Shown here: positions 11,301 through 56,726 of the stretch, piece after piece
Position numbering within the stretch: position 1 is the first letter of the stretch
Layout: each line of letters starts with the position of its first letter
Assembly: GCF_036588685.1 (NCBI RefSeq)
Contig: NC_086382.1
Coordinates: 77,996,001 to 78,060,000 of the forward strand
Length of the DNA stretch: 64,000 nucleotides
From: Mytilus trossulus
Lineage: Eukaryota
Direction of reading: 5' to 3'
Translations under genes and position numbers: made by a program
Notes under the pieces: generated by a model
What the model saw: only the letters and a program-made list of their open reading frames with translations
Told to the model about the DNA's origin: nothing
The model's database searches: none

Positions 11301-12200
11301 ATAGCGAGATCTGGTTTATGGAAGATTATTACTCAATTTATAGAGCCATAAATAGAGCCACTTTGCATGGAACTAACTGTGATATTTTATCATTGACAGA
11401 TAGATTCAGCTTTGAGAAAGTGCATCATAAGTTTTGTAAAACTGTTCTTGGAATTAAAAAAAACTCATGTAATATAGCTGCAAAGTCTGAGTTAGGACGA
11501 TTTCCACTTGACTCTTTTATTAAAACTCAAGTTTTATTATATTTTTGTAGAATAAACTGCCATGAAATAAACCCTCTTGTTAAAGAAGCTTTTGCAGTAA
11601 ATAAGTCTATGTCTGAAGATGGAATATATACTTGGTACACTTTTGCCAAGCATATTTTTAAAGAATTTAATATTGATGAAGAACAATATGTTGATTCTGA
11701 TAAACCTTTTAAACTTATAAAAAATTCACTCAAAAAAACTTTTAAATGTGTAGTGAAGGAAAAGTGTAATAACATCACTCTTCAAAAACTTTCAAATATT
11801 GATAACAGTTCAAAACTTTATCTTTATAGTAAACTTAAAAATGAAATGAAATTTGAGGACTACCTGCACAATCTAACCAATTTTAATAGTCGTCAGCTTT
11901 TAACAAAATTACGTGTAAGTGATCATAATTTGGAAATTGAATTAGGACGTTGTAAAAAAATTCAAAGAGAACACAGACTGTGCAAAGTTTGTAAAATTTT
12001 AGATGATGAGGAACACTTTTTCCTTCATTGCCAAATTAACAGTAATGTCAGACATTCCCTTATAAATGCAATTAAACCCATTATCCTAATTTTAACCAGC
12101 TTGACTCAAACTCTAAACTTAAAACTATTCTAGATCCCAATAAAGATATTTTGTCTAGTGTTGTAGACTATATAAAGCAATCTATGGAATTGCGAAAATA
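8400..12200 (+). mobile_element. CR1-group non-LTR retrotransposon, 5'-truncated ORF2 (RT), disrupted
   Basis: Motifs GKSSGPD, NNYRGISL, QFGFR, CFVDLRRAFD, KGVKQGDSLSPTLFN, FADY (FADD equivalent), ELGRFPL and C-terminal CKVCKILDDEEHFFLHC. Several stops; split by the insertion at 9269-10594. Confidence 0.9.
9269..10594 (-). mobile_element. Helentron-associated non-autonomous element (HINE/DINE-1-like) inserted in the LINE RT
   Basis: Ends actagaggctctaaagagcctgtgtcgctcacc and gctcacttggcccttcgggccaggtgagctaaaa show hairpins and a short subterminal IR (gctcacc/ggtgagc). Also a (gac/ggac)n microsatellite at 10483-10546 and two internal units of about 500 bp. The LINE reads KYLT|KKKNKIYSCFVD once it is removed. 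Confidence 0.75.
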
Positions 12201-22628: not shown

Positions 22629-25493
22629 ATGAATAGTAAAGGTAAAGAAATGAAAGGAAGAAAAGGCAGAGGCAAGTCGTCCAAGCAATTTGAACGCGAG
22701 GATACCGATTCCCCGGTACCAAGGCCGTTGAGAGTGCCCACCCTGTACAAAGAGTCTAAAGCGCGAGAAGAGGGTGAGAAAGCTAGCCAAGCGTTTGCCG
22801 GCTGAGGGGGGAGCCGAAGTTGGAAAGGCATCCGATGTCGCGAGACAGGCCAATGCCGAGACGGTGACAAAGGTAGTCACGAAGGCTGAGGTAACCCCTG
22901 GAGCTGAGGAGGCAACGTCGGAAACTTTGGAGCCCGCCTCCAAGAAGGCTAAGCTTGTCGCAGCCTGGGTTCTTGATCATTTTAATCACTACCCGACTGA
23001 AGCAGAAATGGCTTTACTTCTTCCCCGGCGGGAGTCAAAGAGTGCACGAGTCCCTTGGATCAAATGCACCAATGTGTGGATGTAGACCTGGAAGTAGCTT
23101 GATCGGGTGGTGACGAGGTTCGACTCTCCACCTAAGTCCGTCTCCAATTCCGCATCGAGAGTTCCTTCCGGCCCTGTTGTTCACCGGAGCTAGGGGTCAC
23201 TGCAAAGGCCGTCCTGCCGGTAAAGGTGCAAACTACAGATGCACGAGCAGCCACGTATTCAAAATCGGGCTCACGGGCTGTTAGACAGTCTCTATTCATT
23301 GCAGCATCCACAGCGGAAACTAGTAAAGGGAAAGATGATGGCAGGAACGGGAAAGATGTCAAGACAGTCGACAAAAGTCTGAGTGTGGCCCGGTTTTTTG
23401 GTGACGGGGCCGCTCGTAACAGTATGCCCCTGTGCCTGACAACACAAGAACAACGATCAGTTTATCAGGATGCACAGGCCGATGGAACGTCCTCCCCTGA
23501 AGCCAGCGTAGACAACGCAAACTGCCTCTCTAGCTTTGCCCGCTGCGGTAATGGCTAAAACACAGACAAAAAATGAATGGGCTGTCGAAATGGGACGAAG
23601 TACTGCTAGTACTCACAAAGTGGAAGATCAGGCGGTGCGGAGGTGCCATCTGTGTAATCAGGAGAAGTCCGGCCATATGCGGCGCCATTTGCAGCGTGCC
23701 CATCAACGCTGCAATGAAGAGATCGACGTACCCCTCATTCAGTGGAAGCAAATGACCGCCGGACCTACTAATAAAAAGGCTCTTAAATGCCCTTACTGCA
23801 AACAATCTCACACTAGACTTAAGCGGCAATTGAAAACCGTACACAAAATGACCGATCCACTATTAATTAAAGATCGCCTGGTCGCAGCGGAATATCACGC
23901 CAGCAGACGGTCGATGGATTTATACAATTCGGTCATGACAGGCTTTGAAGCTTTCCTGTCCAGTAGAGGTGGCTACGTGTACAAGGCGTGCATCGTGAAG
24001 GACTTGCTACAAAAGGTTAAATTTATCGTGTCCTTCGTTAATCCGAGTGCCTTCACTTATGGGTCGTTACGTGATCTGCAGAGATGTGGGAATAAAGACG
24101 GCATTCTAGAGCAGGTTGCCACATACGAGCACAGTTCGTCGGGCACGATGGTAAGACGTGAGAAGCCTCTAGGGGCTGGTACCAGGTCTAACTACGTGCT
24201 GGCACTGAAACGCTTCTGTGAGTTTATACACGGGAGGAAAGACCGGGTCCTATCCATCGTACCGGACCTACATTCCTGGGCTACGCTCACTCAGCATGTT
24301 AACCGTGTCTATACTACGTATAACATGGATAAGACCAGGGAGCAAGCCATGCGCCGCATTGACCAATCGCAGCTCCTTGATGGAGTGCAAGTCGGGCTAC
24401 ACTACATCCGTTTTAGCTGTAAGACTAAATGAGATACTATCAGCGGCTACGCCCTTGGATACATCTGTGGAGGCATACACTCTAGTCCGCGGCCACATTC
24501 TCATGCTATTGGAAATCATGAACGGTAAGACGGACGGCGAGTTCCCGAACTTGACCATGCAGGAGTGGCAAGAAGCCACACAAGTAGGAATTGATTACAT
24601 CGTCCGGGTTCGACGACATAAGGTAATCACTAAACCTTGTAACATCAACTTCCCGGGCCTAATCTATCGGTATATAAAACATTTCATTGAACACTTCAGG
24701 CCGATAGTGCTCAAAAAGGGTGTCGTTACGAGGAATGTGTTCCTCGGAACCACGGGCACACAGTTAACAAGTAGCCAAATCGTTGACGCCATGAATAAGT
24801 GCTGGCAAATATATGGTCGCGAGATTAACGTGAAACTGCCACGGTTTACCACAACCAGGCTGCGGAAGTTGATCGTTACGATCCATAGATCCACCACCCA
24901 GTCTAAGTCACAGGATGTCCTTGCCGCCCACATGGCTCATTCATCCGCGGTTGCAGACCGTTGGTATGACATGGGTCAGGGTACGTTTAAGTCCTCAAGG
25001 GCAGGCAACATCATTATTAATGGTGTATGGTCCTCGGTATTGAATAAAACAGCTGTCAAGGTAGAGACGACGGAGGAAGAACACATTGATGGGGATGTAG
25101 ACGATCCTAGTGACATCGATGAAGATGAGGAGGACGCCGAAGCACTGGCGGGAGAACTGGAGGGTCGGTCTGTTAGCGCTCACGACGGGATGGATCTGCA
25201 CGCCGTCCCGTTAGTCCAAGAAGTCCTCCGCTCAGCCCAAACCTCCTACAGTCACCGTGGCCGGCATCATTGCAGATTCAGACTCTACGCCTTTCGCACG
25301 AACCTTGACGACGATGCAGCGCTGCTTTCAGAGCTACATCAGCGAACACCGTGACAATCGGGATCTAAAAGTGTCAACTGCGGACATCAAATGAAAGCTG
25401 AAATCCGAACCGCCCCCTTTCTCTAGTTGACTTGATAACTACGGGGCAACAAAGATAGCGGAGCGTATCCTCTATCTTGTGCGTAAGCCATGA
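22629..25493 (+). pseudogene. YR1: K/A/E-rich N-terminus, two C2H2-like fingers, tyrosine recombinase, acidic tail (frameshifted)
   Basis: ORFs 22774, 23226, 23536 and 24218 join by frameshifts. Fingers CHLC...HLQRAH and CPYC...LKTVH. YR boxes NGKTDGEF (Arg replaced by Thr), VRRHKV, TTTRLRK, AHMAHS, ADRWYD (Tyr present). Confidence 0.8.
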
Positions 25494-26100
25494 ATTTTAT
25501 TTGGTGAGGCAGACGGGATGTGAACCAGAAGAAGAATGGCCTAATGCTAAAAGTGACGTTTTTCTTTTAATCTTTTTTATGCCCAAGAGGGTGACTTTTA
25601 TTTTTATATTTTTATACTGTTATTTTTACCCGTTGTCAAGCTGGTAGTTTTTTTTTGCCACCCCATCTTTTCAACGGGGGTTGACGGACAGATTAGTGGC
25701 CCCGCACTGCTGTCCAAAAGAACTATCGGGCAAGTCACGGGCAAAACCTTAACCATCGGGTAAGGCATGGGAAAACCAAAAAAATATTAAGTCCCGCTTA
25801 TGTCCGGTACGCCCGACACGAATCAAGGGAAATTATCGGGGAATAATGCATTCGCCTGCTTATGTCTGACACGGCCTAACCCATCGGGTCAAGACTTAAA
25901 GCTTCCGTTACCTGCGTGCCAAGGGCGATGCCATTCCGGTGACACGTGTATATACTCCCCCTTACAATTAAGTGGCTCTCTTAACTTTAAGATTAATATT
26001 TCCACCCCATACGGTCATGTCGCTGGACCGCAAAACCAGGGGAAGTATTCGTGGGTCATTAACCGGTTTTTCTATTTATTAGCAGCCCGAATTTACATGC

Positions 26101-27089
26101 ATGGCCTCCACGAGAAAATATCCCGCTACAGAGAGCGGCAGCGGACCGCAGGCTGAGTCACACTGCGTGTTCCATACTCCCAGCAGATATGGTAAGCACA
26201 GCCTGGAGAACATTCTAGCCGTGAAAATTATCATAGAGCGTATTCCAGCTGGTACCGCCTCGTGGCTGACAAAGAAAGAGACAGTGATGCAGCGGATGGC
26301 AAGCAAAATAACACTCGAGCCCGCTGCCGTCGTCGCAACGGCTCCGTCCGATTGCCGGGGTAACAAAGGTGTAGCACACCAGGATGAGGCCGATGATGCG
26401 GCTACTGTCGACGAGGCCAAGTCCATCAGTCGGGAGAGGAAAGCTCTTAAAAAAGAGGAAAGGAAAGCCAGAAAGCTAGCCAAGCGGTTGCTTGATGAAG
26501 GGGACGCAAAAGCTGTCGCGGGACAGGCCAAGGCCAAGAAGGCTAAGGTAACCCCTGAAGCCGACTCGGCGGTAGTCGTCGAGTCTAATCAAGTGGAGGC
26601 ACCGTGCAAGAAGACTAAGCTTGTTGTCGCCTCGGACAAAGATGAGACAAAGAAGAGAGCGAGAGACATATCCACGCGTTTGCCGGCTGATGGGGAAGCC
26701 GAAGTTGGAAAGGCCAAGGCCAATGCCGAGACGGTGACCAAGGTAGTCACGAAGGCTGAGGTAACCCCTAAAGCTGTAGAGGCAAAGTCGGAAAAAATGG
26801 AGCCCGCCTCCCATGGGTTCTTAAATATAGTGCTGAATTCCCGAATGAGGAAGAAATTGCAATGTGTGTTACTCATCCCCGGCCGGAGTATAAAGAGTGC
26901 GCGAGGCCCTTGGATTTAATGATCCCATGTGTGGATGTAGACCCAGAAGTAGAAGCGCCTGATCGGGTGGTGACGAGGGTCGACTCTCCACCTAAGTCCG
27001 TCTCCACTACCGCTATGCCTATGCAAGTTCCTTCCGGCCCTGTTGAACACTCTGATCCGGAGCTAGCGGTCCCTGCAAAGGCCGTGTAG
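26101..27089 (+). CDS. Lys/Ala/Glu-rich protein homologous to the YR1 N-terminus (repeated per unit; frameshifted in units 1-4, stops in unit 5)
   Basis: Shares RKLAKRL, AEVGKA and ANAETVTKVVTKAEVTP with ORF 22774; unit 5 restores the frame into WVLKYSAEFPNEEEIA, matching WVLDHFNHYPTEAEMA of YR1. Confidence 0.6.
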
Positions 27090-30000
27090 TCGGTTAAGGC
27101 GCTACCTTCCATTAATTGCTACTCATATTACATGTCACTGTAAATATTGTGAAATGCGCTACCTTCAATTAATTGCTACTTATATAACTTGTAAAGATAT
27201 CTCATAGCCAATGGGACAACTGTCGGTTGTTTGCTTGGGTCCTGACACCGCATAGGGTTAACCATGGGGTTTTTCCATATTATTGTTTCCTCTATTTTTC
27301 AGATATAAAGCAATGACGACGACGTACATTATCAAGTTTCGTGGAAGCAGGAAGGAATGGAATAGGCTGCTGGAAAGCAGTCATCCGTCAACAGAAGAAT
27401 ATAACTATTACAAACAAGAATTGAAGATCGCCACCTTCGAACGAACGAAAGAGATGGTGGAAATGATAGAGGGTCGGGGTGTTGAGTTCATCCTCATCCA
27501 CCCCGACCCCTATCCCTCTCCTGAAGAAGAGACTCGAAGGAGGGAGGAGGAGAAGACGAGGAAAAGTGAAGAAAAGAAAGAGAAGAATTTGCACCGCAAA
27601 AGAAGGGAGGCAGAGAGGCGGCTTCGAGGCAGGCCAGATCGCTCTGGCTCTGCGTGAACCTCATTGTATAGCATGTACCGGACATTTTACATGACTCTAC
27701 CAATTACTGTGATTTTGTTTTCTTTTTAAGTTTATATTTTTTTACCAGTGTAGGTTTCTTTGTTTATTATATGTATTTACATTATTTACACGCTGAGTCA
27801 CACTGCGTGTTCCATACTCCCAGCAGATATGGTAAGCACAGCCTGGAGAACATTCTAGCCGTGAAAATTATCATAGAGCGTATTCCAGCTGGTACCGCCT
27901 CGTGGCTGACAAAGAAAGAGACAGTGATGCAGCGGATGGCAAGCAAAATAACACTCGAGCCCGCTGCCGTCGTCGCAACGGCTCCGTCCGATTGCCGGGG
28001 TAACAAAGGTGTAGCACACCAGGATGAGGCCGATGATGCGGCTACTGTCGACGAGGCCAAGTCCATCAGTCGGGAGAGGAAAGCTCTTAAAAAAGAGGAA
28101 AGGAAAGCCAGAAAGCTAGCCAAGCGGTTGCTTGATGAAGGGGACGCAAAAGCTGTCGCGGGACAGGCCAAGGCCAAGAAGGCTAAGGTAACCCCTGAAG
28201 CCGACTCGGCGGTAGTCGTCGAGTCTAATCAAGTGGAGGCACCGTGCAAGAAGACTAAGCTTGTTGTCGCCTCGGACAAAGATGAGACAAAGAAGAGAGC
28301 GAGAGACATATCCACGCGTTTGCCGGCTGATGGGGAAGCCGAAGTTGGAAAGGCCAAGGACAATGCCGAGACGGTGACCAAGGTAGTCACGAAGGCTGAG
28401 GTAACCCCTAAAGCTGTAGAGGCAAAGTCGGAAAAAATGGAGCCCGCCTCCCATGGGTTCTTAAATATAGTGCTGAATTCCCGAATGAGGAAGAAATTGC
28501 AATGTGTGTTACTCATCCCCGGCCGGAGTATAAAGAGTGCGCGAGGCCCTTGGATTTAATGATCCCATGTGTGGATGTAAACCCAGAAGTAGAAGCGCCT
28601 GATCGGGTGGTGACGAGGGTCGACTCTCCACCTAAGTCCGTCTCCACTACCGCTATGCCTATGCAAGTTCCTTCCGGCCCTGTTGAACACTCTGATCCGG
28701 AGCTAGCGGTCCCTGCAAAGGCCGTGTAGTCGGTTAAGGCGCTACCTTCAATTAATTGCTACTCATATTACATGTCACTGTAAATATTGTGAAATGCGCT
28801 ACCTTCAATTAATTGCTACTTATATAACTTGTAAAGATATCTCATAGCCAATGGGACAACTGTCGGTTGTTTGCTTGGGTCCTGACACCGCATAGGGTTA
28901 ACCATGGGGTTTTTCCATATTATTGTTTCCTCTATTTTTCAGATATAAAGCAATGACGACGACGTACATTATCAAGTTTCGTGGAAGCAGGAAGGAATGG
29001 AATAGGCTGCTGGAAAGCAGTCATCCGTCAACAGAAGAATATAACTATTACAAACAAGAATTGAAGATCGCCACCTTCGAACGAACGAAAGAGATGGTGG
29101 AAATGATAGAGGGTCGGGGTGTTGAGTTCATCCTCATCCACCCCGACCCCTATCCCTCTCCTGAAGAAGAGACTCGAAGGAGGGAGGAGGAGAAGACGAG
29201 GAAAAGTGAAGAAAAGAAAGAGAAGAATTTGCACCGCAAAAGAAGGGAGGCAGAGAGGCGGCTTCGAGGCAGGCCAGATCGCTCTGGCTCTGCGTGAACC
29301 TCATTGTATAGCATGTACCGGACATTTTACATGACTTTACCAATTACTGTAATTTTGTTTTCTTTTTAAGTTTATATTTTTTTACCAGTGTAGGTTTCTT
29401 TGTTTATTATATGTATTTACATTATTTACACGCTGAGTCACACTGCGTGTTCCATACTCCCAGCCGATATGGTAAGCACAGCCTAGAGCACATTCTAGCC
29501 GTGAAAATTATCATAGAGCGTATTCCAGCTGGTACCGCCTCGTGGCTGACAAAGAAAGAGACAGTGATGCAGCGGATGGCAAGCAAAATAACACTCGAGC
29601 CCGCTGCCGTCGTCGCAACGGCTCCGTCCGATTGCCGGGGTAACAAAGGTGTAGCACACCAGGATGAGGCCGATGATGCGGCTACTGTCGACGAGGCCAA
29701 GTCCATCAGTCGGGAGAGGAAAGCTCTTAAAAAAGAGGAAAGGAAAGCCAGAAAGCTAGCCAAGCGGTTGCTTGATGAAGGGGACGCAAAAGCTGTCGCG
29801 GGACAGGCCAAGGCCAAGAAGGCTAAGGTAACCCCTGAAGCCGACTCGGCGGTAGTCGTCGAGTCTAATCAAGTGGAGGCACCGTGCAAGAAGACTAAGC
29901 TTGTTGTCGCCTCGGACAAAGATGAGACAAAGAAGAGAGCGAGAGACATATCCACGCGTTTGCCGGCTGATGGGGAAGCCGAAGTTGGAAAGGCCAAGGC

Positions 30001-33000
30001 CAATGCCGAGACGGTGACCAAGGTAGTCACGAAGGCTGAGGTAACCCCTAAAGCTGTAGAGGCAAAGTCGGAAAAAATGGAGCCCGCCTCCCATGGGTTC
30101 TTAAATATAGTGCTGAATTCCCGAATGAGGAAGAAATTGCAATGTGTGTTACTCATCCCCGGCCGGAGTATAAAGAGTGCGCGAGGCCCTTGGATTTAAT
30201 GATCCCATGTGTGGATGTAGACCCAGAAGTAGAAGCGCCTGATCGGGTGGTGACGAGGGTCGACTCTCCACCTAAGTCCGTCTCCACTACCGCTATGCCT
30301 ATGCAAGTTCCTTCCGGCCCTGTTGAACACTCTGATCCGGAGCTAGCGGTCCCTGCAAAGGCCGTGTAGTCGGTTAAGGCGCTACCTTCCATTAATTGCT
30401 ACTCATATTACATGTCACTGTAAATATTGTGAAATGCGCTACCTTCAATTAATTGCTACTTATATAACTTGTAAAGATATCTCATAGCCAATGGGACAAC
30501 TGTCGGTTGTTTGCTTGGGTCCTGACACCGCATAGGGTTAACCATGGGGTTTTTCCATATTATTGTTTCCTCTATTTTTCAGATATAAAGCAATGACGAC
30601 GACGTACATTATCAAGTTTCGTGGAAGCAGGAAGGAATGGAATAGGCTGCTGGAAAGCAGTCATCCGTCAACAGAAGAATATAACTATTACAAACAAGAA
30701 TTGAAGATCGCCACCTTCGAACGAACGAAAGAGATGGTGGAAATGATAGAGGGTCGGGGTGTTGAGTTCATCCTCATCCACCCCGACCCCTATCCCTCTC
30801 CTGAAGAAGAAACTCGAAGGAGGGAGGAGGAGAAGACGAGGAAAAGTGAAGAAAAGAAAGAGAAGAATTTGCACCGCAAAAGAAGGGAGGCAGAGAGGCG
30901 GCTTCGAGGCAGGCCAGATCGCTCTGGCTCTGCGTGAACCTCATTGTATAGCATGTACCGGACATTTTACATGACTCTACCAATTACTGTGATTTTGTTT
31001 TCTTTTTAAGTTTATATTTTTTTACCAGTGTAGGTTTCTTTGTTTATTATATGTATTTACATTATTTACACGCTGAGTCACACTGCGTGTTCCATACTCC
31101 CAGCAGATATGGTAAGCACAGCCTGGAGAACATTCTAGCCGTGAAAATTATCATAGAGCGTATTCCAGCTGGTACCGCCTCGTGGCTGACAAAGAAAGAG
31201 ACAGTGATGCAGCGGATGGCAAGCAAAATAACACTCGAGCCCGCTGCCGTCGTCGCAACGGCTCCGTCCGATTGCCGGGGTAACAAAGGTGTAGCACACC
31301 AGGATGAGGCCGATGATGCGGCTACTGTCGACGAGGCCAAGTCCATCAGTCGGGAGAGGAAAGCTCTTAAAAAAGAGGAAAGGAAAGCCAGAAAGCTAGC
31401 CAAGCGGTTGCTTGATGAAGGGGACGCAAAAGCTGTCGCGGGACAGGCCAAGGCCAAGAAGGCTAAGGTAACCCCTGAAGCCGACTCGGCGGTAGTCGTC
31501 GAGTCTAATCAAGTGGAGGCACCGTGCAAGAAGACTAAGCTTGTTGTCGCCTCGGACAAAGATGAGACAAAGAAGAGAGCGAGAGACATATCCACGCGTT
31601 TGCCGGCTGATGGGGAAGCCGAAGTTGGAAAGGCCAAGGACAATGCCGAGACGGTGACCAAGGTAGTCACGAAGGCTGAGGTAACCCCTAAAGCTGTAGA
31701 GGCAAAGTCGGAAAAAATGGAGCCCGCCTCCCATGGGTTCTTAAATATAGTGCTGAATTCCCGAATGAGGAAGAAATTGCAATGTGTGTTACTCATCCCC
31801 GGCCGGAGTATAAAGAGTGCGCGAGGCCCTTGGATTTAATGATCCCATGTGTGGATGTAAACCCAGAAGTAGAAGCGCCTGATCGGGTGGTGACGAGGGT
31901 CGACTCTCCACCTAAGTCCGTCTCCACTACCGCTATGCCTATGCAAGTTCCTTCCGGCCCTGTTGAACACTCTGATCCGGAGCTAGCGGTCCCTGCAAAG
32001 GCCGTGTAGTCGGTTAAGGCGCTACCTTCAATTAATTGCTACTCATATTACATGTCACTGTAAATATTGTGAAATGCGCTACCTTCAATTAATTGCTACT
32101 TATATACCTTGTAAAGATATCTCATAGCCAATGGGACAACTGTCGGTTGTTTGCTTGGGTCCTGACACCGCATAGGGTTAACCATGGGGTTTTTCCATAT
32201 TATTGTTTCCTCTATTTTTCAGATATAAAGCAATGACGACGACGTACATTATCAAGTTTCGTGGAAGCAGGAAGGAATGGAATAGGCTGCTGGAAAGCAG
32301 TCATCCGTCAACAGAAGAATATAACTATTACAAACAAGAATTGAAGATCGCCACCTTCGAACGAACGAAAGAGATGGTGGAAATGATAGAGGGTCGGGGT
32401 GTTGAGTTCATCCTCATCCACCCCGACCCCTATCCCTCTCCTGAAGAAGAGACTCGAAGGAGGGAGGAGGAGAAGACGAGGAAAAGTGAAGAAAAGAAAG
32501 AGAAGAATTTGCACCGCAAAAGAAGGGAGGCAGAGAGGCGGCTTCGAGGCAGGCCAGATCGCTCTGGCTCTGCGTGAACCTCATTGTATAGCATGTACCG
32601 GACATTTTACATGACTTTACCAATTACTGTAATTTTGTTTTCTTTTTAAGTTTATATTTTTTTACCAGTGTAGGTTTCTTTGTTTATTATATGTATTTAC
32701 ATTATTTACACGCTGAGTCACACTGCGTGTTCCATACTCCCAGCCGATATGGTAAGCACAGCCTAGAGCACATTCTAGCCGTGAAAATTATCATAGAGCG
32801 TATTCCAGCTGGTACCGCCTCGTGGCTGACAAAGAAAGAGACAGTGATGCAGCGGATGGCAAGCAAAATAACACTCGAGCCCGCTGCCGTCGTCGCAACG
32901 GCTCCGTCCGATTGCCGGGGTAACAAAGGTGTAGCACACCAGGATGAGGCCGATGATGCGGCTACTGTCGACGAGGCTTAGTCCATCAGTCGGGAGAGGA

Positions 33001-34356
33001 AAGCTCTTAAAAAAGAGAAAAAGAAAGCCAGAAAGCTAGCCAAGCGGTTGCTTGATGAAGGGGACGCCAAAGCTGTCGCGGGACAGGCCAAGGCCAAGAA
33101 GGCTAAGGTAACCCCTGAAGCCGACTAGGCGGTAGTCGTCGAGTCTAATCAAGTAGAGGCACCGTGCAAGAAGGCTAAGCTTGTTGTCGCCTCGGACAAA
33201 AGTGAGACAAAGAAGAGAGCGAGAGACATATCCACGCGTTTGCCGGCTGAGGGGGAAGCCGAAGTTGGAAAGGCCAAGGCCAATGCCGAGACGGTGACCA
33301 AGGTAGTCACGAAGGCTGAGGTAACCCCTAAAGCTGTAGAGGCAAAGTCGGAAAAAATGGAGCCCGCCTCCCATGATACGTTTGTCGCTAATTGGGTTCT
33401 TAAATATAGTGCTGAATTCCCGAATGAGGAAGAAATTGCAATGTGTGTTACTCATCCCCGTCCGGAGTATAAAGAGTGCGCGAGGCCCTTGGATTTAATG
33501 ATCCCATGTGTGGATGTAGACCCAGAAGTAGAAGCGCCTGCTCGGGTGGTGACGAGGGTCGACTCTCTACCTAAGTCCATCTCCACTACCGCTATGCAAG
33601 TTCCTTCCGGCCCTGTTGAACACTCTGATCCGGAGCTAGCGGTCCCTGCAAAGGCCGTCCAGTCGGTTAAGGCGCTACCTTCAATAAATTGCTACTCATA
33701 TTACATGTCACTGTAAATATTGTGAAATGCGCTACCTTCAATTAATTGCTACTTATATAACTAGTAAAGATATCTCATAGCCAATGGGACAACTGTCGGT
33801 TGTTTGCTTGGGTCCTGACACCGCATAGGGTTAACCATGGGGTTTTTCCATATTATTGTTTCCTCTATTTTTCAGATATAAAGCAATGACGACGACGTAC
33901 ATTATCAAGTTTCGTGGAAGCAGGAAGGAATGGAATAGGCTGCTGGAAAGCAGTCATCCGTCAACAGAAGAATATAACTATTACAAACAAGAATTGAAGA
34001 TCGCCACCTTCGAACGAACGAAAGAGATGGTGGAAATGATAGAGGGTCGGGGTGTTGAGTTCATCCTCATCCACCCCGACCCCTATCCCTCTCCTGAAGA
34101 AGAGACTCGAAGGAGGGAGGAGGAGAAGACGAGGAAAAGTGAAGAAAAGAAAGAGAAGAATTTGCACCGCAAAAGAAGGGAGGCAGAGAGGCGGCTTCGA
34201 GGCAGGCCAGATCGCTCTGGCTCTGCCTGAACCTCATTGTATAGCATGTACCGGACATTTTACATGACTCTGCCAATTACTGTGATTTTTTTTTTTTTTT
34301 AAGTTTATATTTTTTTACCAGTGTAGGTTTCTTTGTTTATTATATGTATTTACATT
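26152..34356 (+). repeat. Tandem array of five 1640-bp units (starts 26152, 27792, 29432, 31072, 32712)
   Basis: The ORF track repeats at an exact 1640-bp offset; unit 5 has a 19-bp insertion and a 6-bp deletion relative to units 1-4. Confidence 0.97.
27313..27657 (+). CDS. 114-aa orphan protein with charged basic C-terminus (copies 28953-29297, 30593-30937, 32233-32577, 33886-34230)
   Basis: ctatttttcag acceptor followed by ATG at 27313; protein identical in all five units; AT-rich 3' region, with aataaa near 34402 after the last copy. Confidence 0.6.
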   Translation: MTTTYIIKFRGSRKEWNRLLESSHPSTEEYNYYKQELKIATFERTKEMVEMIEGRGVEFILIHPDPYPSPEEETRRREEEKTRKSEEKKEKNLHRKRREAERRLRGRPDRSGSA

Positions 34357-38955: not shown

Positions 38956-40800
38956 GTCAGGCGGTATTACTAACAAGGCAGCGGTAACAAAGCAAACTGC
39001 CTCTCTAGGTGTGCCCACTGCATTGGCTAGACAACAGACAAGACATGAATGGGCTGTCGAGATGGGGAAGAGTACTGCTTGCAAAAAAAGAGATTGTACT
39101 CATAAGGTGGAGGATCAGGCGCTCGTGACGTGCCATCTGTGCAATCAAGTGAAGTCGGGCCATATGCGGCGTCATTTGAAACTAGCCCACCAGCTCTGCA
39201 ATGAGGAGATCGATGCACTCCTCGTTCAGTGGACGGAAATGACGACCGGTGCTGATAATAAAAAGGCCCTGACATGTCCATACTGCAAACAGTCTCACAC
39301 TAGACTGAAAAGGCACTTGCAACTTGTACACAAATTGACTGATCCGCTATTGATTTAAGATCGCCTGGTCTCAGCGGCATTATCACGCCCGGAGACGGCC
39401 GATGGATTTATATAAATCGGTCATGACAGGCTTCGAGGCTTTCCTGTCCAGTAGAGGTGGTTACACGTACAAGCCCAGTATCGTAAAGGACTTACTACAA
39501 AAAGTTAAAACGATCTTGTCCTTTATCGTTAATGCAAGTGCCTTCACGTTTGGGTCGTTACGTGATCTGCAGAGATGTTGGGATAAAGACGGCATTCTAG
39601 AGCAGGTTGCCACTAACAAGCACGATCCGGCCCGCTGGAAAGACGTGAGAAGCCACTAGGGGCTGGTACCATGTCTAACTACGTGCTGGCATTGAAACGC
39701 TTCTGTGAGTTTCTCCACGGGAGGCAAGACCGGGTCCTAGCCATCGTACCGGACCTACATTCCTGGACTATTCTCACTATGCATGTGAACCGTGTTTATA
39801 CCACGTATAACATGGAAAAGACTAGGGACCAAGCCATGCGCCGCACAGACCAGACTCAGCTCCTGGATGGAGTGCATGTCTGGAACTACACTACGTCCGA
39901 TTTAGCTGTAAGACTAAATAAAGTTCTATCAGCTGGTACTAAGCCTACGGTTTTAACTGTGGAAGCATTCACTCTAGTCCGTGGTCACATTTTGATGCTA
40001 TTGGAAATTATGAACGGTAAGAGGGCCGGCGATTTCCGAAACCTGACCATGCAGGAATTGCAAGAAGGCACGCAAGTGGGAATTGACTACATCGTCCGGG
40101 TTCGACGACATAAGGTAATTACTAAACCTTGTAACATCAACTTCCCGGGCCTCGTCTATAATTATATGAAAACCTTTATCAAATACTATAGACCGATAGT
40201 CCTGAAAAAGGGCATCGCTACGGAGAATGTGTTTCTTGGAACCTCTGGCGCACCATTAACTAGCAGCCAAATCGTTGACGCTATGAATAAATGCTGGCAA
40301 ATATATGGATCGGAGATTAACGTGAACCTGCCACGGTTTACCACAACCAGGCTGCGTAAGTTGATCGTCACGATCCATAGATACACCACCCAGTCTAAAG
40401 AGTCCCAGGAGATCATTACCGCCTACATGGCTCATTCACCCGCGGTTGCAGACCGTTCAACCGATAACAAAATATAAAAATGTACCGGTAACGGTACGCC
40501 CAAAAATATTTAAAAATTGAAAAAGAACAAAAAACACATAAAAATATTTAAAAAAAGAAAAAAATGTTGGTTACTCCCTATCCACTCCAGCTATCTTGGG
40601 CCTGAAAATACAGCATGAGATGTGTGTATCGCCTTCTTTGTCCAGTCGTTACAGTTGAGAGGGGGTGTCTGCCTGGGAAAACCAAAAAATACCAAGTCCC
40701 GCTTATGTCCGGTACGCTTGACACGAATCAAGGGTAAAGTATCGGGGAATAATGCATTTGCCTGCTGGGCTGGCTACCACGGGTCTCTACCGCGGCTTAC

Positions 40801-46652: not shown

Positions 46653-46899
46653 TGTGGTGCCGCTTATGTATACATAGAAGAACCAGTCCATATATTACAG
46701 TATGCCAAGCAATACCTCTGGACGACTGACGTCACGAGGATTCCCTTCGACTTCCGCTTACTATATTGAACACATGTATTATTGTATTATTGCTGTCTGC
46801 TGACTTATATATTCACCAGATTACAGAGATCAACAGATATTAAAGGTATTCTGTTTATCACACATACACTTTACTTATGTGTACCATATCGGCACAACA
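46653..46899 (+). repeat. 5' LTR (247 bp)
   Basis: tgtggtgccgc...ggcacaaca; 4 substitutions counted versus the 3' LTR. Confidence 0.97.
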
Positions 46900-47587
46900 T
46901 TGGCGTCGTACGACAAAGAACGAATTATTTTTAGCAAGTGAGGCGGACTCCACGAGGGCGCCTTTGCAGATTTGAAAACTTTTGATGCTTCATTTTTTTG
47001 TAAATTTATTACGTAAGCATTACCATAAATTTACTACAGATTGATAGTAGATTAAATTGCATCAATTTTTTACAGTTTATCACGTATGAAATCTTCATAT
47101 TTGATATTTTTAATCAGATAAGGTTAGGAACTTCCGGTTATCGCCATTAGGTCCTTCTTCACGGAAGTCATTTGTCTGCAATACTCCATTGCGCAGACGC
47201 AAACCGGAAACAGTCTCGATTTCTGTAACTTAGTTTCGTACATTATTTTTATACTGAATTTAGACTGATATTTTATATTAAAGAGGGTATATACTCATAA
47301 ATATTTTATGAGTAACATATTATACACCGTATAATAAAGTACAGTGTGTCAACTGAGTCTCTGTTCCAGTTCTATCCTATTTTGTTGCCTGCATTTTTGA
47401 AATTGTAAAAGTAGTAGCTTTTATAAAAAAGCTGCATTGTTTATGTCTTGAGTCGCACATAAAAGTTGTGATTTTGAGATTTATTTGCCTTGAGTAATTA
47501 CTCAGTGCAAATTATAATATTGTTTTGAGTTGCATAATATTGTAATTTGAAATATTTAAGAATATTGTAATTTGAAATAAAGACAAC

Positions 47588-49904
47588 ATGGCAGGAATTG
47601 GGGATGAGAATGAACTGAAGGAAAACATTGAAACAGAGGAGTTGATACAAGATGACATATTCACAAAAGAAAATATAGCTGATACTACTTTGACAGAACC
47701 AGCTGAAAATACCAAAATGTCATTGGAACAGCTATACCAAGAGTTTCAGGCGGATAGAAAAGCAAATGCAATAAGAGCTGTTGAGACTGAAAGCAGGGTG
47801 AAACAAAGTGAGGATCGCATTGAACAGATTTTCCATGGTTTGTTAAATATTCAAGCTGAACAAAAAGAAGCAACAAAAATCAGTACAGAAAACATAGTGG
47901 CAATATCCCAACAAGTGCAACGGTCAGAACAGAGAATTGACAAGAAGATTGATGCTAACGGTAAACGTTTAGAAGAGTTAACATCGGATAAGTTTAATGC
48001 CTTGGGAAGGCGGCTAGACAAAATGGCTGCTGCTAATGATGAGGCAAGTACCGTGCAATTCAAGAGTGCATTTGAACACACAGGTTCATTTCAGCAGATG
48101 GCATCAAGTGTTAGCGATTTGATTAACAAGAGAAGTCAAGCTCCCTTCTATGGATACTCCTGTTAAACAGAAATCTGAAGCTAGTCCATATATTGCCAGT
48201 ACTCCATTACTGCAAAATAAGCCTCCAGCATTTAGTCTCTCGCCAATTATGTCAATTGATGAGACTACACAGCCTGAATCTAAGGCAGGTACAACTCCAG
48301 TATCGAGTGACAAAGATAATGTGTTAGGGCCCCCGGCTCTGCACAATACATTGTTGTTTCAACAGATTCAGGGCAAAGGCATGCCAGAAAGTGTTGGTAG
48401 TGACCAGGAGATCTATCATATGCAAGGTTCGTTGCCACTACTGAGTGACAAGGGAAGCTTGCCAGGGCCCTCGGCTCTGCACGGGACAAACTCAGGTATG
48501 GTAACACAGCATCCATTCAAAGGCATAGAGGGAGTATCCACTGAATACAAACCCCATCATAACACAACTCCAGCAACGGCTACTTTTGCACCGTCCTATG
48601 TTGGTACACCATATGTATCTCAGGGTATCAATGTTAGTACACCTTTACACGTTGCACCAGCTACAAGTAGCGAATCATATGCAGCGTCCTTAGTACAGAG
48701 TAGACCAGCTCTGTACCCTCATATAGGATCAATGATACAACAGCCTCCGCCTGCGTTTATGACCCCTGTGATGACAACAGTAGCATCCACAGGCCCGTCA
48801 CCAATGCAAATTGACACTAGCAGGTCTTCAAGATCACGCACTAAAAAGAAAAAGGAACGAAGCCACAGCTCTTCGTCAGACTCCTCTCTTGATAGGGAGT
48901 GCTCTAGGTGGCAGGACAACTCTGGGGCGAGAGACAGGAGTAGAAGTCCCCAGCTTCCTAAAATGCAAGTTTTCACAGGAAGAGGTTTTCTTACGTGGGA
49001 AGCCTTTATCTATCAGTTTGAAAGAACAGCAGGAAGGAGACAATGGGAAAATAGGAAGAAAGTTTGCCGACTATTGGACTGTCTAGCTGATGTGGCGTTA
49101 GAATATGCAAGAAAGGTCAACATCGATGATGACTATAAGACTTTAAGGAAAGCACTGAAACAGCGTTTCAACAAAAAGGACGAACCTGTATCAGCAAGAC
49201 GCCAGTTGCAGTATGTGAGGCAGCAAGACAGTGAAACACTGGAGGAGTTTGCTGAACGGGTCCATTTTGTTGCAATAGATGGGTATGATAAATGTGACAA
49301 TTCTGTCATTGATCAAATTGGCACAGAGGCATTCCTCAGAGGTTGCAAGGACAAAGAGGCTGCCCGTCACGTGATTGAAAGGAACCCAGAGTCCATCAAT
49401 AAGGGGTTGAAAATCATGAAAACGTCCATAGCGAATCAGAAGGCTATTTATGGATCTAGAAGTCCAAATTTTGCTCACAGACAGTTCTCATTTGCTGATA
49501 GCGCTGGTAAATCACAGGACAAAGAAAGTGCTAGTACTGTTAATAGTCCATTGGAAAAGGAAGTAAGGAACTTGACTCAACTTGTGACCAAATTGACAGA
49601 GGTGATGCTTTCTTCTGATCAACATACACGTGGTAGGTCTCCCGAAAGATATACACCACCTAAGTACAATGCGTATCGATCACCTACACCACCTCCTAAT
49701 CAAAGTTCATATAGTCCTCAACAAAGGTCATATAGTCCCCAACAGAGGTCATGTAGTCCTCAACGTCAACGTTCGCCATCACCACGACCAAATTCTAGAA
49801 ATCAAGGCTACTTTAAACAACGGTCCACTTCACCTGGCGACAGAGCTTATCCAAACTCTACTCCAACAACTGAGTCTTCAAATGCCAACGGGTCGAGCCG
49901 GTAG
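47588..49904 (+). CDS. gag: Gag-like protein (one frameshift near 48150)
   Basis: Coiled-coil-like N-terminus (ORF 47588), then ORF 48150 with a capsid-like core (FTGRGFLTWEAFIYQFE...RQQDSETLEEFAERV) and an Ser/Pro/Arg-rich tail. Confidence 0.85.
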
Positions 49905-52900
49905 GCCAACACTCGACTCTAAAATCACATGGCCAAGGGAAAATACCACACGACAAATCAGAACCGAGGCCCACGGCTTCGTCTGATATTTTTATAAGAC
50001 GTACAATTGGGAAAAGTTTGGCAGTACGGGGAACAGTATTTCAACAAAATGCAAGTATGATTGTTGATACAGCAGCTATGATTACACTCGTCAACGAGAA
50101 ATTAATACCGGAGAATATAGAATGTTCCGAAACAGTGACGCTACGTGGTTTGGGCGAGCAACTGGTCATTGGCAAGATTATTAGGAACACACTCCTGAAT
50201 ATAGATGGATTAGAAATAAAGTGGGACGTGTGTAGAGCACCACTTACAGATGATGTGATTCTAGGTCTAGATATTCTGGATACGCTTGGTGCAGTCATCA
50301 ACCTCAGCACTCCATCACTTACAGTTAACAACAGAGTTATACCTGCCTCATTCGTTACTGGATCTGATGATAGTGCTTATCAACAAGTCTGCATTAAACG
50401 TACAATTACAGTCCCGCCAAATTCAACGATGATCTTAAGCATAGATACACACAGAGGATCCGAACAAGAGTTTATTTTGGAACCATGCTCTCTTGCCAGT
50501 GGAGTTTTAGTTTCGCATGTTGTCGGAAAAGGCAAATCTTGCCCTGTAACTATTTTAAATGATGGGAATCGTTACATACGTATTAAAAAGGGTACACCGA
50601 TAGGTCATTATAAGAGATTGACAGTATAATGGAGGAGACTTCGGAAGAAAGTGAAAATCGAACTCCAGATGTCCGTCGTGGCATCGTAGAAACACAAACC
50701 CAGGTGCCCACGGCACCAGGTTTAAGCCAAGAAGAATTGTCTACGTTGCCATCCCATTTAACAGACCTGTATGAACGTTCTATAAAGCATGTAATTAGTC
50801 AAGATGATAAGTTAAAACTCAAGAAGTTATTAATCGAATACCAGGATGTATTTGCACAGCACGACCTAGATCTCGGATGCCTTACAGCTGTCCGGCATAA
50901 AATAGATACCAAAGACCACGCTCCAGTTAAACACCGGATGCGAAGAACACCTCTTGGATTCCAAGATCTTGAACAGCAGCACCTTGACAAGATGTTACAA
51001 GCAGGTGTCATTGAGCCATCATCTTCTGAATGGGCCTCAGCTCCAGTGCTGGTAAGAAAGAAAGATGGAACCGTGCGCTGGTGCATTGACTACAGAGCTT
51101 TAAATGACAGAACAATAAAAGATTGCTTCCCTATTCCTATTATTGAGGATTGCTTGGACTCACTCCAAGGCACCACCACGTTCTGTACATTGAACCTTGC
51201 CAGTGGCTATTATCAGATTGAGCTTGAGCCAGAAGACCGAAAGAAAACGGCGTTCATTACAAGATATGGGTTGTTCGAGCACACCAGAATGGGAATGGGC
51301 CTTTGTAACGCCCCAGCAACATTTCATCGGGCCATGCAACTCGTTTTGAGAGGACTTACTTGGACACAGGTGTTAGTTTATCTTGATGATGTCGTGGTTC
51401 TCGGTCGCAACTTCGAGGATGGTCTCATTAATTTGAGGGCTGCATTTGAAAGATTTAGACAGTATACCCTGAAGCTGAAACCAAAGAAGTGTCAACTGTT
51501 TCAGCCTGAAGTTGAGTTTTTAGGAAAACTGGTGAGTGCTAATGGCATCTCCGTTTCTCCATCTAAGATAGAAGCAGTGAAAAAGTGGCCAACTCCCAAG
51601 TCAAAGAAAGAACTCATGTCATACCTAGGGTTTGTCAATTACCACCGGGATCACCTGCACAACTATGCAGAAATGACTGCATGTCTATACGACCTTGCTC
51701 ACCAGACAGGAGAAGCTGAATGGCAACAGTGTCACGAAAAGGCGTTCCAACAGTCACAAACGGCGTTAATAAGTGCACCTTGCCTGACATATCCTAATGC
51801 CAATGATAAATTCATATTAGATACAGATGCATCTGACACCACCATAGGTGCAGTTTTATCACAATTACAAAATGGTGAAGAAAGGGTTATATGCTTTGCA
51901 AGCCACGTTCTATTGAAGCCTCAGCGTCGTTATTGTACAACAAGGAAAGAGTTACTGGCCGTTGTTAAGTTTTGTCGGCATTTCCGTCACTACTTACTTG
52001 GTAGACGTTTTATTTTACGCACTGATCATAACAGTTTGGTATGGCTAATGCGTTTCAATCATATTGAAGGACAACTAGCGCGATGGTTGGAAGAATTGTC
52101 ATCATTTGACATGGAGATCATCCATCGTCCAGGAAAGAAGCATTGTAACGCTGATGGTCTAAGTTGCATCCCAGACGATGTTCCTGAATGTGACTGCTAT
52201 AGGGCAGGACTTGATCCTACAACACTGCCATGTCATGGTTGCAAATATTGCCTACGAGCTCACGAACAGTGGAGCAGATTCGGAAATGACGTAGACGACG
52301 TGATTCCATTGGCTACTAAGTCAGTGATAGCATCAGTACGCACGGTTTCAGTAGTGGCCGAAAATGATAAGGACATGTCCACTGACCAAGAGCCCACGGC
52401 TCTGGCAGGGGATTGTCACTCAGATCCATCACCAAGTTTAGACGATACTCTACCATATGCTGATGGCAATCCATGTAGCAACTGGGCACCTGAATACCCA
52501 CCTGAACAGTTAAAGATATTTCAGCAAGAAGACCCTGATTTGGCTCCAATATTACAATGGATGGAGGAAGACGTCGAGCCAACACAGGCTGAACTACGTT
52601 TGCAAAGTAGGGCAACTAGGTCGCTTTGGTTGTGTAGACCTTGCTTTGTCATGTTTAACCATGTTTTATACTACAAATTCATAGGTTGTCTAGCACGCCA
52701 AGGTCTTTGTTTAGTTGTTCCATCAGAGTTAAAAGGAGAGGTGCTTAAAAATTGTCATGACACCAAAACATCAGGACACTTGGGTCAGAAAAAGACGCTC
52801 GATAAGTTAAAGCAGGCTTTTCTGTGGTATAACATGCGCAAAGATTGTGACGAATATGTTAGTACCTGCGCCACCTGTAGTCAAAATAAAAAGGCGCATG

Positions 52901-54243
52901 TGCAACCTAGAGCACCACTTGGGCAGTTCCATGCTGGGTATCCGATGGAGAGAGTACATCTCGATATTCTTGGACCTTTTAATACAAGTAATAGCGGCAA
53001 TAATTATGTCTTGATGATGGTGGATCAGTTCACAAAATGGGTAGAGATGGCTGCATTACCTGAACAGACTGCAAAGATGATTGCTGAGAAATTTATTGTG
53101 CATTTTGTGGTGACATTTGGGTGTCCCTTGGAAATCCACACTGACCAAGGACGAAACTTCGACAGTGACTTATTCAAAACACTATGTGATGCCTTGGAAA
53201 TTGCCAAAACCAGGACAACCCCGTATCATCCCTCATCAAATGGCCAGGTAGAGAGGTACAATACCATTGTATTGGCAATGATAAGATGTTTTATTGAGAA
53301 AAATTGTCGTAACTGGGACAGAGACTTGCCTTTCTTGTCTATGGCAATGCACTCAATGGTGAATAGGCAAACTGGATTTACGCCGAATCAAATGATGTTG
53401 GGTAGAGAGACTATCCAACCTGTTCATCTTCTCCTTGGCATGCCACAGTACGGTCAGAACAGAATGACCCCCAACGTTTGGGTACAACATTTAGTCGGAA
53501 GGATGCAAAAGATTCACGAATTTGCAAGGCACAGTCTGCAAACCTCGCAACTAAGACAAAAGCGGGATTATGACCTCAGAGTTGTTGAACATAAATATCA
53601 ACCAGGCGATTTGGTGTATAAGGCGGACTCAACTACAAAAGTAGGACAGAGCAAGAAGCTCAAATCACCATGGTGTGGACCTTTTCTTGTCGTGGCTAGT
53701 AGACCCCCATTGTACACTATCCGAGGAAGAAAAGGAGATTCAGTGCACCATGCATATGACAAATTGAAACTTTGCAACGACAGGGATATCCCGACCTGGA
53801 TCAAAAGACTTAGGCATGCGTTATTTCAAGCTGAAAGTGAAATGGATGAGAGCTGGGATGATCTTGATGATACAATACCCTATGGTGTTGACTTTAATGT
53901 TCAGGGCATGTTTGATGCAAATCAGCCCACTTTTGATAGAATTGTTTTACCCCAGTCATTAGGTGACCCGTCCTATACCCATACTCCATTGACACAAGAA
54001 CTGGAACAGGGGCCCCAGTTCGATACAGTTGCAGCTTTAGATGCTACTAGTAATAGCATTGATGAACCTCCAAATTTAGACTTGGGGGAAATTTCAAAAT
54101 CGGATAATAGTTTCAGTGGGGACTCTGTAAATGTCAAAGATAGCAGCACAGATGACGAGAAGAGGCCCTCGGCCTCTCTGTCTTCTGATCACACCTCAAG
54201 GTATGGTAGGCCAATCAGATGCCCACTACGATACCAAACGTAA
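49886..54243 (+). CDS. pol: Pol: protease, RT, RNase H, integrase (frameshift near 50608)
   Basis: PR IVDTAAMIT; RT LNLASGYYQI (usual Asp is Asn) and YLDD; RH DTDASD, ELLAV, TDH, NADGLS; IN HHCC, HLDILGP, HTDQGRNF, NGQVERYN, GPF. The pol frame overlaps the gag end in the -1 frame. Confidence 0.95.
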
Positions 54244-54381
54244 TAGATATTGTGTGGGATAATTTCATATGTATATAATGTATATATTTACTTTAGCATG
54301 TTCGTACTTAGTAATAAATGTGCATCATTTTCGCTATTGTGTTTTTAATCATGTTATGTTTTGATTTCCTCTCGTTCTAGG

Positions 54382-56179
54382 ATGGAAGAGGGGTCTCGTT
54401 CAGACCAAGATGTGTTGTCACTGAGTCCACACAGCGAGTGGCAGGAAAGTAAATCTGATTGTACCGATCTTGACGTGGCAGATCTAATGGTTATAGATGA
54501 AGTAGGTCCAGATGAAGACATATGTCCAGATGAAGGAGAAGGTCCAGCTGAAGAAGTAGGCCCAGCTGAAGAAGTAGGTCCAGATTACCAGGCTGCTGGT
54601 GTAGCTTCTGGGGCCCTTGGCCCTGTTGAGACACACAGCAGTGTGGTTGAAGATACTAGTATTGGTATATACCATAGTGAGATCGATGAAGAGAGAAGCG
54701 GCGCGGTAGCAGTTTCGAAAAACAGATTACGGCAGTGTCCAATATGTGGGATGGCGTCCAGGGAAAAGACACGCCGTCATGTCCTCAAAAGACACCTTCC
54801 ATGGTTTTGGTCGGGTTCTACTGCCTGTTGGGATTGCTGTGAGCAGGAAATCCAGGCATCTTCTCTAGCCAGGAGACACACAGAGGAACATAGGATTGGT
54901 TGTTTCTTTGATGAAGAACACCTTCATTTGTGGTGCCAGTTGGTGAGTGGCTCTCTTCACCTTGTTAAATCGTGGTTTGGCTTAACAGATCTTGAAGGCT
55001 TGTTACAGTATGTACTTGACCGGCAATTACATGAAACCGTCACCAGTGGTTTTAGTGACCAAGAACAACAGCTACTGGTGTTCTATGCACAGAACTATAG
55101 TCCTGACCGCCTGTCGCACATCAGTGCTAACCCTCCCAACCATGTCATTATTGACCAACTGGGAGATTATGACTAGCCTATTACGCAGAGTGGGACCTGC
55201 TCAACAACAGTCTCTTTTGTCCTGTGACAAATTCGTAACTTACGAGGGTGCATGGATTGTGGACACGGTACCAGTACTTCAAGAGCCATTTGTGTTTGTA
55301 GACAGTCATTTCCATTTAGATCTCATCCTCAAGAGACTACATTTCAACACATTTTTGCATATGAGCTCACGTATCTCTCCGGCTGAGCACAACAACACCT
55401 TTTACTACGGAGTTGCCAATTATGTCTTCACAGAACATTGGGACAGCTGGTCAGTACAAGTTGGAGCTGCAAAGTCGGTGTATGTATCATTCGGAATATA
55501 TCCCCATATTGCTGCCAGAGGAGTCAGTCACAAGCAACTTGAGGACTTGGACCACCTGTTGGGAAACTACAAGTGCGTATACGTAGCAGTCGGCGAAATA
55601 GGCCTTGACTTCACAACCAGGTGCGGATGCAAGCGATGTCACACTCCACAGCAATGTCAGCAGCGAATGCGGGACTGCCAGGAAAAGGCCTTGTTGGAGA
55701 TGCTGCATATAGCACAGCGCCGACAGTTGCCTGTCATCTTGCACTGTCGTGATAGAGGTTATGGTGATGCTGCAGCCCGTGTATTGGCCATCATTCGCAA
55801 TGGGTTTGCTGAATTGCACTACCATCGCCATTGCTTTGATGGTAGTATAGAGGAATTGAGGGAATGGCAAAGCCTTCCAAATGTTGTGTTTGGAATCACG
55901 GGAAAGTTTTTAAAGGACACGAACGCCAACAGTGATGCGATCTCAAGGATCTTACCACATCAGTTAATCCTTGAGTCTGATGCCCCGTTTCTTTCGCCAA
56001 GGTCATGTTGTGAGGTGAACCATCCCTGGAATTTAATAGATGTTGCTTTGGCAGTGAGTCAGCGCAGAAACATTCCGTTGAACATTCTAAACTGGATGGC
56101 TAATGATAATGCCCTCCGATTCTACAGTATCCCAAAGTTGAGACAAGAGCCAGCTAACTGGGGCCCTAGGCCTCGTTAG
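54382..56179 (+). CDS. tatD: Third ORF: acidic repeats, two C2H2-like fingers, TatD-family metallo-nuclease (frameshift near 55150)
   Basis: TatD motifs DSHFHLD, GIYP (usually GxHP), AVGEIGLD, ILHCR, HCF, LESDAPFL; fingers CPIC...HVLKRH and CWDC...RHTEEH; lies between IN and the PPT. Confidence 0.9.
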
Positions 56180-56479
56180 CAATCTTTCAATAATAGAGTT
56201 TTTGATGGATTCTGTAAATAGTTTTATCAGTATCAGGAAGGTTCCGATATATGTATATGCGTTTCTTTTGATACATGGATGACTTTGTGTTTCTTCAACT
56301 AAAGATTTTATACAGAAATTGAATATTTTATACAGAGTGTTTTAATTAGCATCTCTAACTATTACCCGCAACATCAGAGAGTTATGAACTAGCGTTACAT
56401 TCTTTGCTGTATTTTATCTTGTTTTTAAGTTTATTTTTTTAGTTTAAATATGTGACTGATTCTACACGAAGGGGACGGA

Positions 56480-56726
56480 TGTGGTGCCGCTTATGTATGC
56501 ATAGAAGAACCAGTCCATATATTACAGTATGCCAAGCAATACCTCTGGACGACTGACGTCACGAGGATTCCCTTCGACTTCCGCTTACTATATTGAACAC
56601 ATGTATTATTGTATTATTGCTGTCTGCTGACTTATATATTCACCAGATTACAGAGATCAACCGATATTAAAGGTATTCTGTTTATCACGCATACACTTTA
56701 CTTATTTGTACCATATCGGCACAACA
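56480..56726 (+). repeat. 3' LTR (247 bp)
   Basis: Matches the 5' LTR; preceded by the PPT and followed by GTAT. Confidence 0.97.

Follow-up and report, generated by a model that had tools for sequence, protein, structure and literature searches.

The element in the window

The window analysed here, a stretch of 64,000 nucleotides from the mussel Mytilus trossulus, contains an LTR retrotransposon at positions 46653–56726. The element is bounded by 247-bp LTRs that both begin with TG and end with CA and that differ by 4 mismatches, and it is flanked by the 4-bp target duplication GTAT (Table 1). Pfam matches confirm the Gypsy order, with gag followed by protease, reverse transcriptase (RT), RNase H and integrase, and the paired LTRs, target duplication, primer site, polypurine tract and domain order are together those of a Ty3/Gypsy element. 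A reading made earlier from the sequence alone had described a complete element with a TatD gene between integrase and the polypurine tract. The LTRs, target duplication, primer site and purine tract bear this out for the ends of the element, but not for its coding capacity: gag, pol and ORF3 all carry frameshifts, and the window copy is dead or non-autonomous. In sister copies gag is a single frame of 778 codons, and pol is likewise a single frame.

Table 1. Features of the Gypsy element in the window.
Feature	Position	Strand	Remarks
5′ LTR, TG...CA	46653..46899	+	4-bp target duplication just before
ATTAAA signal overlapping likely splice donor	46839..46847	+	exon end 46845, GT at 46846; LTR-like loose end in run X6 stops here
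Primer-binding-site-like sequence, TGG start	46900..46921	+	position after 5′ LTR
gag	47588..49904	+	Pfam; frameshift near 48150
pol: protease, RT, RNase H, integrase	49874..54243	+	Pfam; frameshift near 50610 (between protease and RT)
Pyrimidine tract and AG, splice acceptor	54360..54380	+	one base before ORF3 ATG; X5 and X6 contigs begin at 54379
ORF3, acidic N-terminal tail, predicted disordered	54382..54735	+	pLDDT <50 for residues 1–96, sister copy
ORF3, two C2H2-like zinc fingers	54736..54891	+	finger cysteines at 54736, 54826; profile match to CTCF fingers
ORF3, conserved helical domain, no Pfam family	54892..55290	+	contains frameshift near 55150
ORF3, class II TatD TIM-barrel nuclease domain	55301..56140	+	HxH, E, H, H, E-x-D; Pfam, fold match
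Four-Cys insert after GEIG motif	55619..55657	+	restricted to sub-lineage
Polypurine tract	56466..56479	+	precedes 3′ LTR
3′ LTR	56480..56726	+	4-bp target duplication just after

Comparison with the sister copy L027 reveals a recombination point between 51500 and 52000. Identity is ∼98–100% from gag through RT and ∼80% from RNase H onward, dS rises from <0.01 before the breakpoint to between 1.35 and saturation after it, and the LTRs of the two copies are 85% identical. This pattern looks like a template switch that would have exchanged the 3′ half of the element, including ORF3.

Elsewhere in the window, positions 10732–12133 hold the RT remnant of a non-LTR retrotransposon (Pfam RVT_1, E 4e-17), and a GC-richer block at 21000–43000 includes 1640-bp tandem units (26083–33716). 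Two ORFs within this block, at 24209–25354 and 39617–40477, lack a Pfam match and resemble tyrosine recombinases by eye, on the basis of a motif; each is preceded by zinc-finger-like ORFs.

ORF3 and its domains

ORF3 extends from an ATG at 54382 to a stop at 56179, about 599 codons, and is read in two overlapping frames (54349–55176 and 54986–56179), which places one frameshift near 55150 in the window copy, a break at which the sequence-only reading merely hinted; a frame of 596 codons is intact in six sister copies. The second frame matches TatD (Pfam PF01026, E 4e-37), with the motifs DSHFH at 55301, GEIG at 55592, LHCR at 55739, RHCF at 55826 and ESDAP at 55973. These motifs and the located finger cysteines confirm what had been read from the sequence, namely a gene of ∼600 codons with TatD motifs behind N-terminal C2H2-like fingers. 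The Cys-rich insert reported at the same time is present at 55619–55657 but is not a general feature, as it occurs in only 31 of 123 ORF3 proteins.

A structure predicted for a naturally open sister ORF3 (mean pLDDT 80) has a disordered acidic tail at residues 1–96, followed by a confidently modelled finger-helical region and a barrel. Compared over residues 288–581, the barrel matches known TatD structures with a Z score of 32 and an rmsd of 2.2 over 259 aligned residues. Among the best 150 clusters (at 50% identity) of a profile search, 124 of the 150 proteins combine the N-terminal domain with TatD, and all seven catalytic positions are kept in 129 of the 138 database proteins that cover them. 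The TatD domain is probably an active nuclease. The finger cysteines and the first two histidines are almost invariant, with variation at the histidines of the second finger, and the finger profile matches the tandem fingers of CTCF (E 7e-4). An Atlas search with the N-terminal domain returned only zinc-finger leads, with scores <0.9.

The description of ORF3 as occupying the env position holds for its slot after pol; a hydropathy scan of 11 families detected no signal peptide, hydrophobic N-terminus or clear membrane anchor (highest 19-residue values 0.92–1.74). The notion of an env-like gene that aids cell-to-cell spread would fit this position and the likely env-type splicing described below, but the hydropathy profile and the nuclease-barrel fold speak so strongly against it that we give it almost no credence. 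Pfam and fold comparison identify TatD as the only enzyme in ORF3, with no DEDDy (RNase D-like) domain.

Two kinds of related protein show other combinations of these parts. In three of 12 long relatives scanned (P0331, P0365 and P0373), an ORF3-like TatD protein carries a NADAR domain at its N-terminus. The finger-helical domain also occurs in five copies in an ankyrin protein and in three in a B-box protein (P0355 and P0382), possibly through domestication.

Copies in the genome and beyond

The TatD part of ORF3 matches 98 places in the genome, 97 of them besides the window copy. Fifty of these 97, mostly full-length matches, were fetched with their surroundings, and in 48 of the 50 gag or pol fragments immediately precede the TatD part in the same orientation; the TatD ORF3 is thus not a one-off capture, and other members of the family carry it too. 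Of the two exceptions, L056 is a small TatD gene of another kind, and L069 shows no pol within 10 kb but is close to one of the Gypsy families. Where 14 kb of sequence was fetched, every locus (10 of 10) has an LTR pair, and at 7 of them the two LTRs are 100% identical. The RTs of distant TatD families are 55–61% identical to that of the window.

Beyond this genome, the nearest named ORF3 proteins come from Mytilus species, followed by Saccostrea and Crassostrea. Integrase is fused to parts of ORF3 in three gene models (P0002 and P0022 from Mytilus coruscus, and P0283), so the linkage to the element also holds outside the genome examined. Scans of metagenome and viral contigs with the ORF3 alignment yielded 90 loci that match the TatD part only, with gag, pol or finger matches at 0 of 90.

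Several loci carry other arrangements. L056 (7672–8595), L083 (7882–8850) and L084 are separate small intronless genes of the TATDN2 lineage with a Cys-rich start; the first adjoins an OTU protease ORF and may mark another mobile element. L081, L082 and L088 are, judging from tree placement and motifs, likely host genes of TATDN3-like, multi-exon TATDN2-like and TATDN1-like type, respectively. Two short derivatives, L216 and L217, have the LTRs of the family and a gag region ∼77% identical, lack pol and ORF3, and are likely non-autonomous elements.

Phylogeny, selection and loss

In a pol tree of 28 rows, 16 rows with TatD and 4 without form a single clade (support 100/100). The TatD-less rows are nested inside it, so that one gain followed by later losses is the simplest reading. 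The comparison of RT and TatD histories proposed from the sequence alone gave agreement: pol and TatD distances from 13 families are correlated, with a rho of 0.83 (p 1e-4). TatD evolves ∼2.9 times faster than pol, and the pol tree and a 40-row TatD tree have only 6 of 10 splits in common.

The element TatDs form one clade (100/99) that falls within the TATDN2 lineage (100/99), but not among animal TATDN2 sequences, in a 72-row tree, from which 21 of 93 rows were left out for redundancy or run time. A 228-row FastTree makes them paraphyletic. A mixture-model tree of 52 rows that retains the stray rows (176 of 228 left out) again unites 28 of 30 element TatDs (95/93) in the TATDN2 lineage (97/99). 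In topology tests, which like the 40-row tree left out 53 of 93 rows, grouping with TATDN3 and grouping with the examined genome's own TATDN2 alone are each rejected weakly (p 0.024 and 0.044). The AU test does not reject descent from mollusc TATDN2 (p 0.18); the best trees place the element TatD outside animal TATDN2. Judged by these trees, the source of the element TatD is the TATDN2 lineage, and its capture likely happened once, long ago.

Between subfamilies the domain is under purifying selection, with dN/dS values of 0.125 (L037/L055) and 0.133 (L037/L051); the RTs of the same pairs give 0.137 and 0.189. Between the window and its sister L027, synonymous sites in TatD are saturated (0.81) and dN is 0.18. 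Among near-identical copies the ratios are noisy and lie close to 1, as is expected after insertion; for one pair, L053/L096, the value of 0.81 spans a broken frame and is unusable.

These data bear on the prospect that a host TATDN retrocopy was captured on a single occasion and has since drifted neutrally. Such a history could be read into the frameshifts of the window copy and the ratios near 1 among near-identical copies; it is set against the presence of ORF3 throughout the clade, the purifying selection between subfamilies and the rejected groupings with the genome's TATDN2 and TATDN3, and its probability is negligible. With dN/dS at ∼0.13, and tight grouping with the genome's own TATDN2 or TATDN3 absent, the domain is neither a neutral passenger nor a close copy of these host genes. 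The dedicated accessory nuclease proposed in the sequence-only reading gains support from the same evidence, and we are confident that the TatD ORF3 is an ancient, selected accessory gene.

The losses are informative in their own right. The TatD-less sister lineage still has young copies, with LTRs 99.4–100% identical in 5 of 5 tested, and because this lineage remains mobile without TatD, the domain is accessory. Members of a sister Gypsy lineage (L101–L105, L107, L108 and L110) have a gag-pol frame of up to ∼2,500 codons that ends in a PHD finger, and their ORF3 keeps the finger-helical part, with a different small domain in place of TatD at its end. A short third ORF is also present in more distant Gypsy elements (L109, L113, L115, L116 and L117); its zinc-finger-like motifs are recognized by Pfam as C2H2 only in L113 and were identified by eye in the others.

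The catalytic residues of the element's own enzymes, D-E-D in RNase H and D-D-E in integrase, are conserved in almost every TatD family. The idea that TatD replaces RNase H was considered and rejected: the alignment shows 3 of the 4 catalytic positions of RNase H to be conserved, and the fourth is present in the window.

Work on the element's cDNA, whether by 3′ trimming, repair of abasic sites or gap processing at integration, would make ORF3 a replication helper. A class II relative, TATDN3, has 3′-exonuclease and AP-endonuclease activity on DNA (PMC10085689), and in the elements the catalytic residues of TatD are kept and the domain is co-inherited with pol. A core role of this kind, also suggested by the sequence-only reading, is weakened because ORF3 lies outside Gag-Pol, because RNase H and integrase retain their active-site residues and because the lineage without TatD has young copies; the faster evolution of TatD relative to pol counts against it as well. 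We regard the cDNA role as unlikely.

Expression of ORF3

A pyrimidine tract and AG are located 0–15 bases 5′ of the ORF3 ATG in distant families. All 12 ORF3 starts have an acceptor score of at least 7, compared with 74 of 369 non-coding ATGs; a score of at least 9 is reached by 7 of the 12, but by only 77 of the 2472 other ATGs and 7 of the 369 in non-coding sequence. One of the 12 starts (L031) was chosen with the acceptor in view. Contigs from two studies (runs X5 and X6) start at 54379. In one X6 contig this position is preceded by 27 LTR-like bases, which align to 46818–46843 (score 40, the best of 200 shuffles being 32), a junction that rests on a single contig of a single run among seven, X6 being a probable RNA run whose RNA label is a guess. 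The alignment stops just before an AG-GT donor and overlaps an LTR variant from the same run. A further run, X7, contains one unspliced contig of 9.2 kb that crosses the acceptor. The LTR-to-ORF3 junction appears in no joint table of the runs examined, and no joint of the LTR to the ORF3 start is present in DNA among three short or rearranged derivatives (L216–L218). Overlap of the poly(A) signal with the donor is common only to the window's own subfamily pair and is absent from 10 other LTRs. Contig depth cannot rank expression in these data.

We think it probable that ORF3 is expressed from a spliced message. Since a joint between the LTR donor and the ORF3 acceptor would remove the primer site, the spliced RNA would not serve as a template for copying primed in the normal way.

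Proposed role of ORF3

The reading that we favour, to which we assign a probability of roughly one half, is that a third gene captured once and carried across the clade is translated from a spliced message into a metal-dependent 3′–5′ nuclease that would clear the element's own RNA-DNA hybrids. In the full-length transcript, splicing would join the 5′ LTR donor to the acceptor just ahead of ORF3, giving a message that makes protein and cannot be copied. The free protein would act in trans, outside the Gag-Pol particle, with its fingers and helical domain serving as an anchor on the element's nucleic acid or on chromatin. The TatD domain would then, like human TATDN2 on R-loops, degrade the RNA strand of R-loops or of leftover hybrids, and single strands as well. 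Removal of hybrids may ease transcription of the element and lower its sensing or silencing by the host. A trans-acting, finger-guided nuclease of this kind is favoured because TatD is accessory. The substrate and purpose are held more tentatively than the rest and at somewhat less than even odds. TATDN2 acts on R-loops and is only weakly active on plain RNA-DNA duplexes (PMC10711561), and the class II enzyme TATDN3 acts on DNA (PMC10085689); a preference for RNA is for these reasons not assured.

Other roles give more weight to the N-terminal part of the protein or to a target outside the element. ORF3 might be mainly a zinc-finger regulator or host-binding protein in which TatD is a swappable effector against host defence RNAs or factors. 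The retention of the finger-helical part without TatD in the sister lineage, the short zinc-finger ORF3s of outgroup Gypsy elements and the addition of NADAR in some long relatives would all accord with such a protein, but no host target is identified and TatD is kept across most of the clade with strictly conserved catalytic residues, and we find this rather doubtful. A trans-acting nuclease could instead restrict competing elements or viruses, or act as a toxin that favours its carriers, in a genome where many families coexist and one exchange of a 3′ half between families is seen; no antidote or self-protection feature was seen, and this role seems quite improbable. A broader form of the hybrid-clearing reading, which we hold to be less likely than not, is that ORF3 is a retrovirus-style accessory gene of an old and widespread Gypsy lineage; it would encode a spliced, trans-acting zinc-finger platform with plug-in enzymes (a TatD R-loop nuclease and, in some relatives, NADAR) that erase the RNA-DNA signals by which animal hosts detect and silence elements.

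Relation to known systems

The nearest described case is found in bdelloid rotifers, whose LTR retrotransposons Juno and Vesta encode a DEDDy 3′–5′ exonuclease as ORF3, with function not shown (PMC5408684). The mussel gene resembles it as a predicted 3′–5′ exonuclease with intact catalytic residues that takes the place of env in a Gypsy-like element. The slot and the broad chemistry are the same, but the enzyme is different: that of Juno and Vesta belongs to the DEDDy superfamily, whereas the mussel ORF3 is a TatD TIM barrel fused to a zinc-finger and helical domain. In addition, rotifer elements acquired their ORF on two or more occasions, on recent branches (PMC5408684), and the mussel TatD forms one old, co-inherited clade.

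Among cellular proteins, the closest parallel is human TATDN2, which has the HxH motif of class II, acidic residues (E593, E705 and D707) that are matched in ORF3 and a long N-terminal extension (PMC10711561). ORF3 differs in being intronless, element-borne and long-branched, in having its own finger-helical domain and in falling outside TATDN2 from sponges to molluscs in the best trees, and its activity is only predicted.

The env genes of retroviruses and errantiviruses are expressed from subgenomic mRNA. ORF3 resembles them as a third ORF after pol with a likely spliced RNA and differs in having no envelope features. Captured nucleic-acid-processing enzymes are also represented by the NADAR domains of Ectocarpus Gypsy and oyster Tx1 elements, which lie within Pol or ORF1 (PMC12477816); some ORF3 relatives contain NADAR too, but the domains of those elements are not in a TatD ORF3. 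MolGy and C-clade are named mollusc Gypsy clades (PMC6238403). No description of TatD in an LTR element was found in the accessible literature, including PMC6238403, PMC6962438, PMC10778899, PMC12477816 and PMC12709183; supplements, Repbase and subscription journals lay outside this scope and may hold an earlier mention. The main text of an env survey (PMC13524379) contains no mention of TatD or a nuclease, and that of the rotifer study (PMC5408684) none of TatD.

Enzymatic third genes of LTR retrotransposons have been known mainly from rotifers, without an assigned function. The clade that the TatD nuclease defines is large, old and still mobile; it includes >120 protein clusters at 50% identity that have the same two-part layout, and natural variants in which the domain has been lost or swapped make the role of TatD in ORF3 testable. 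In bivalves, many of the annotations ‘tatD’ or ‘TATDN2’ likely refer to genes of these elements and can thereby mislead gene-family and association studies.
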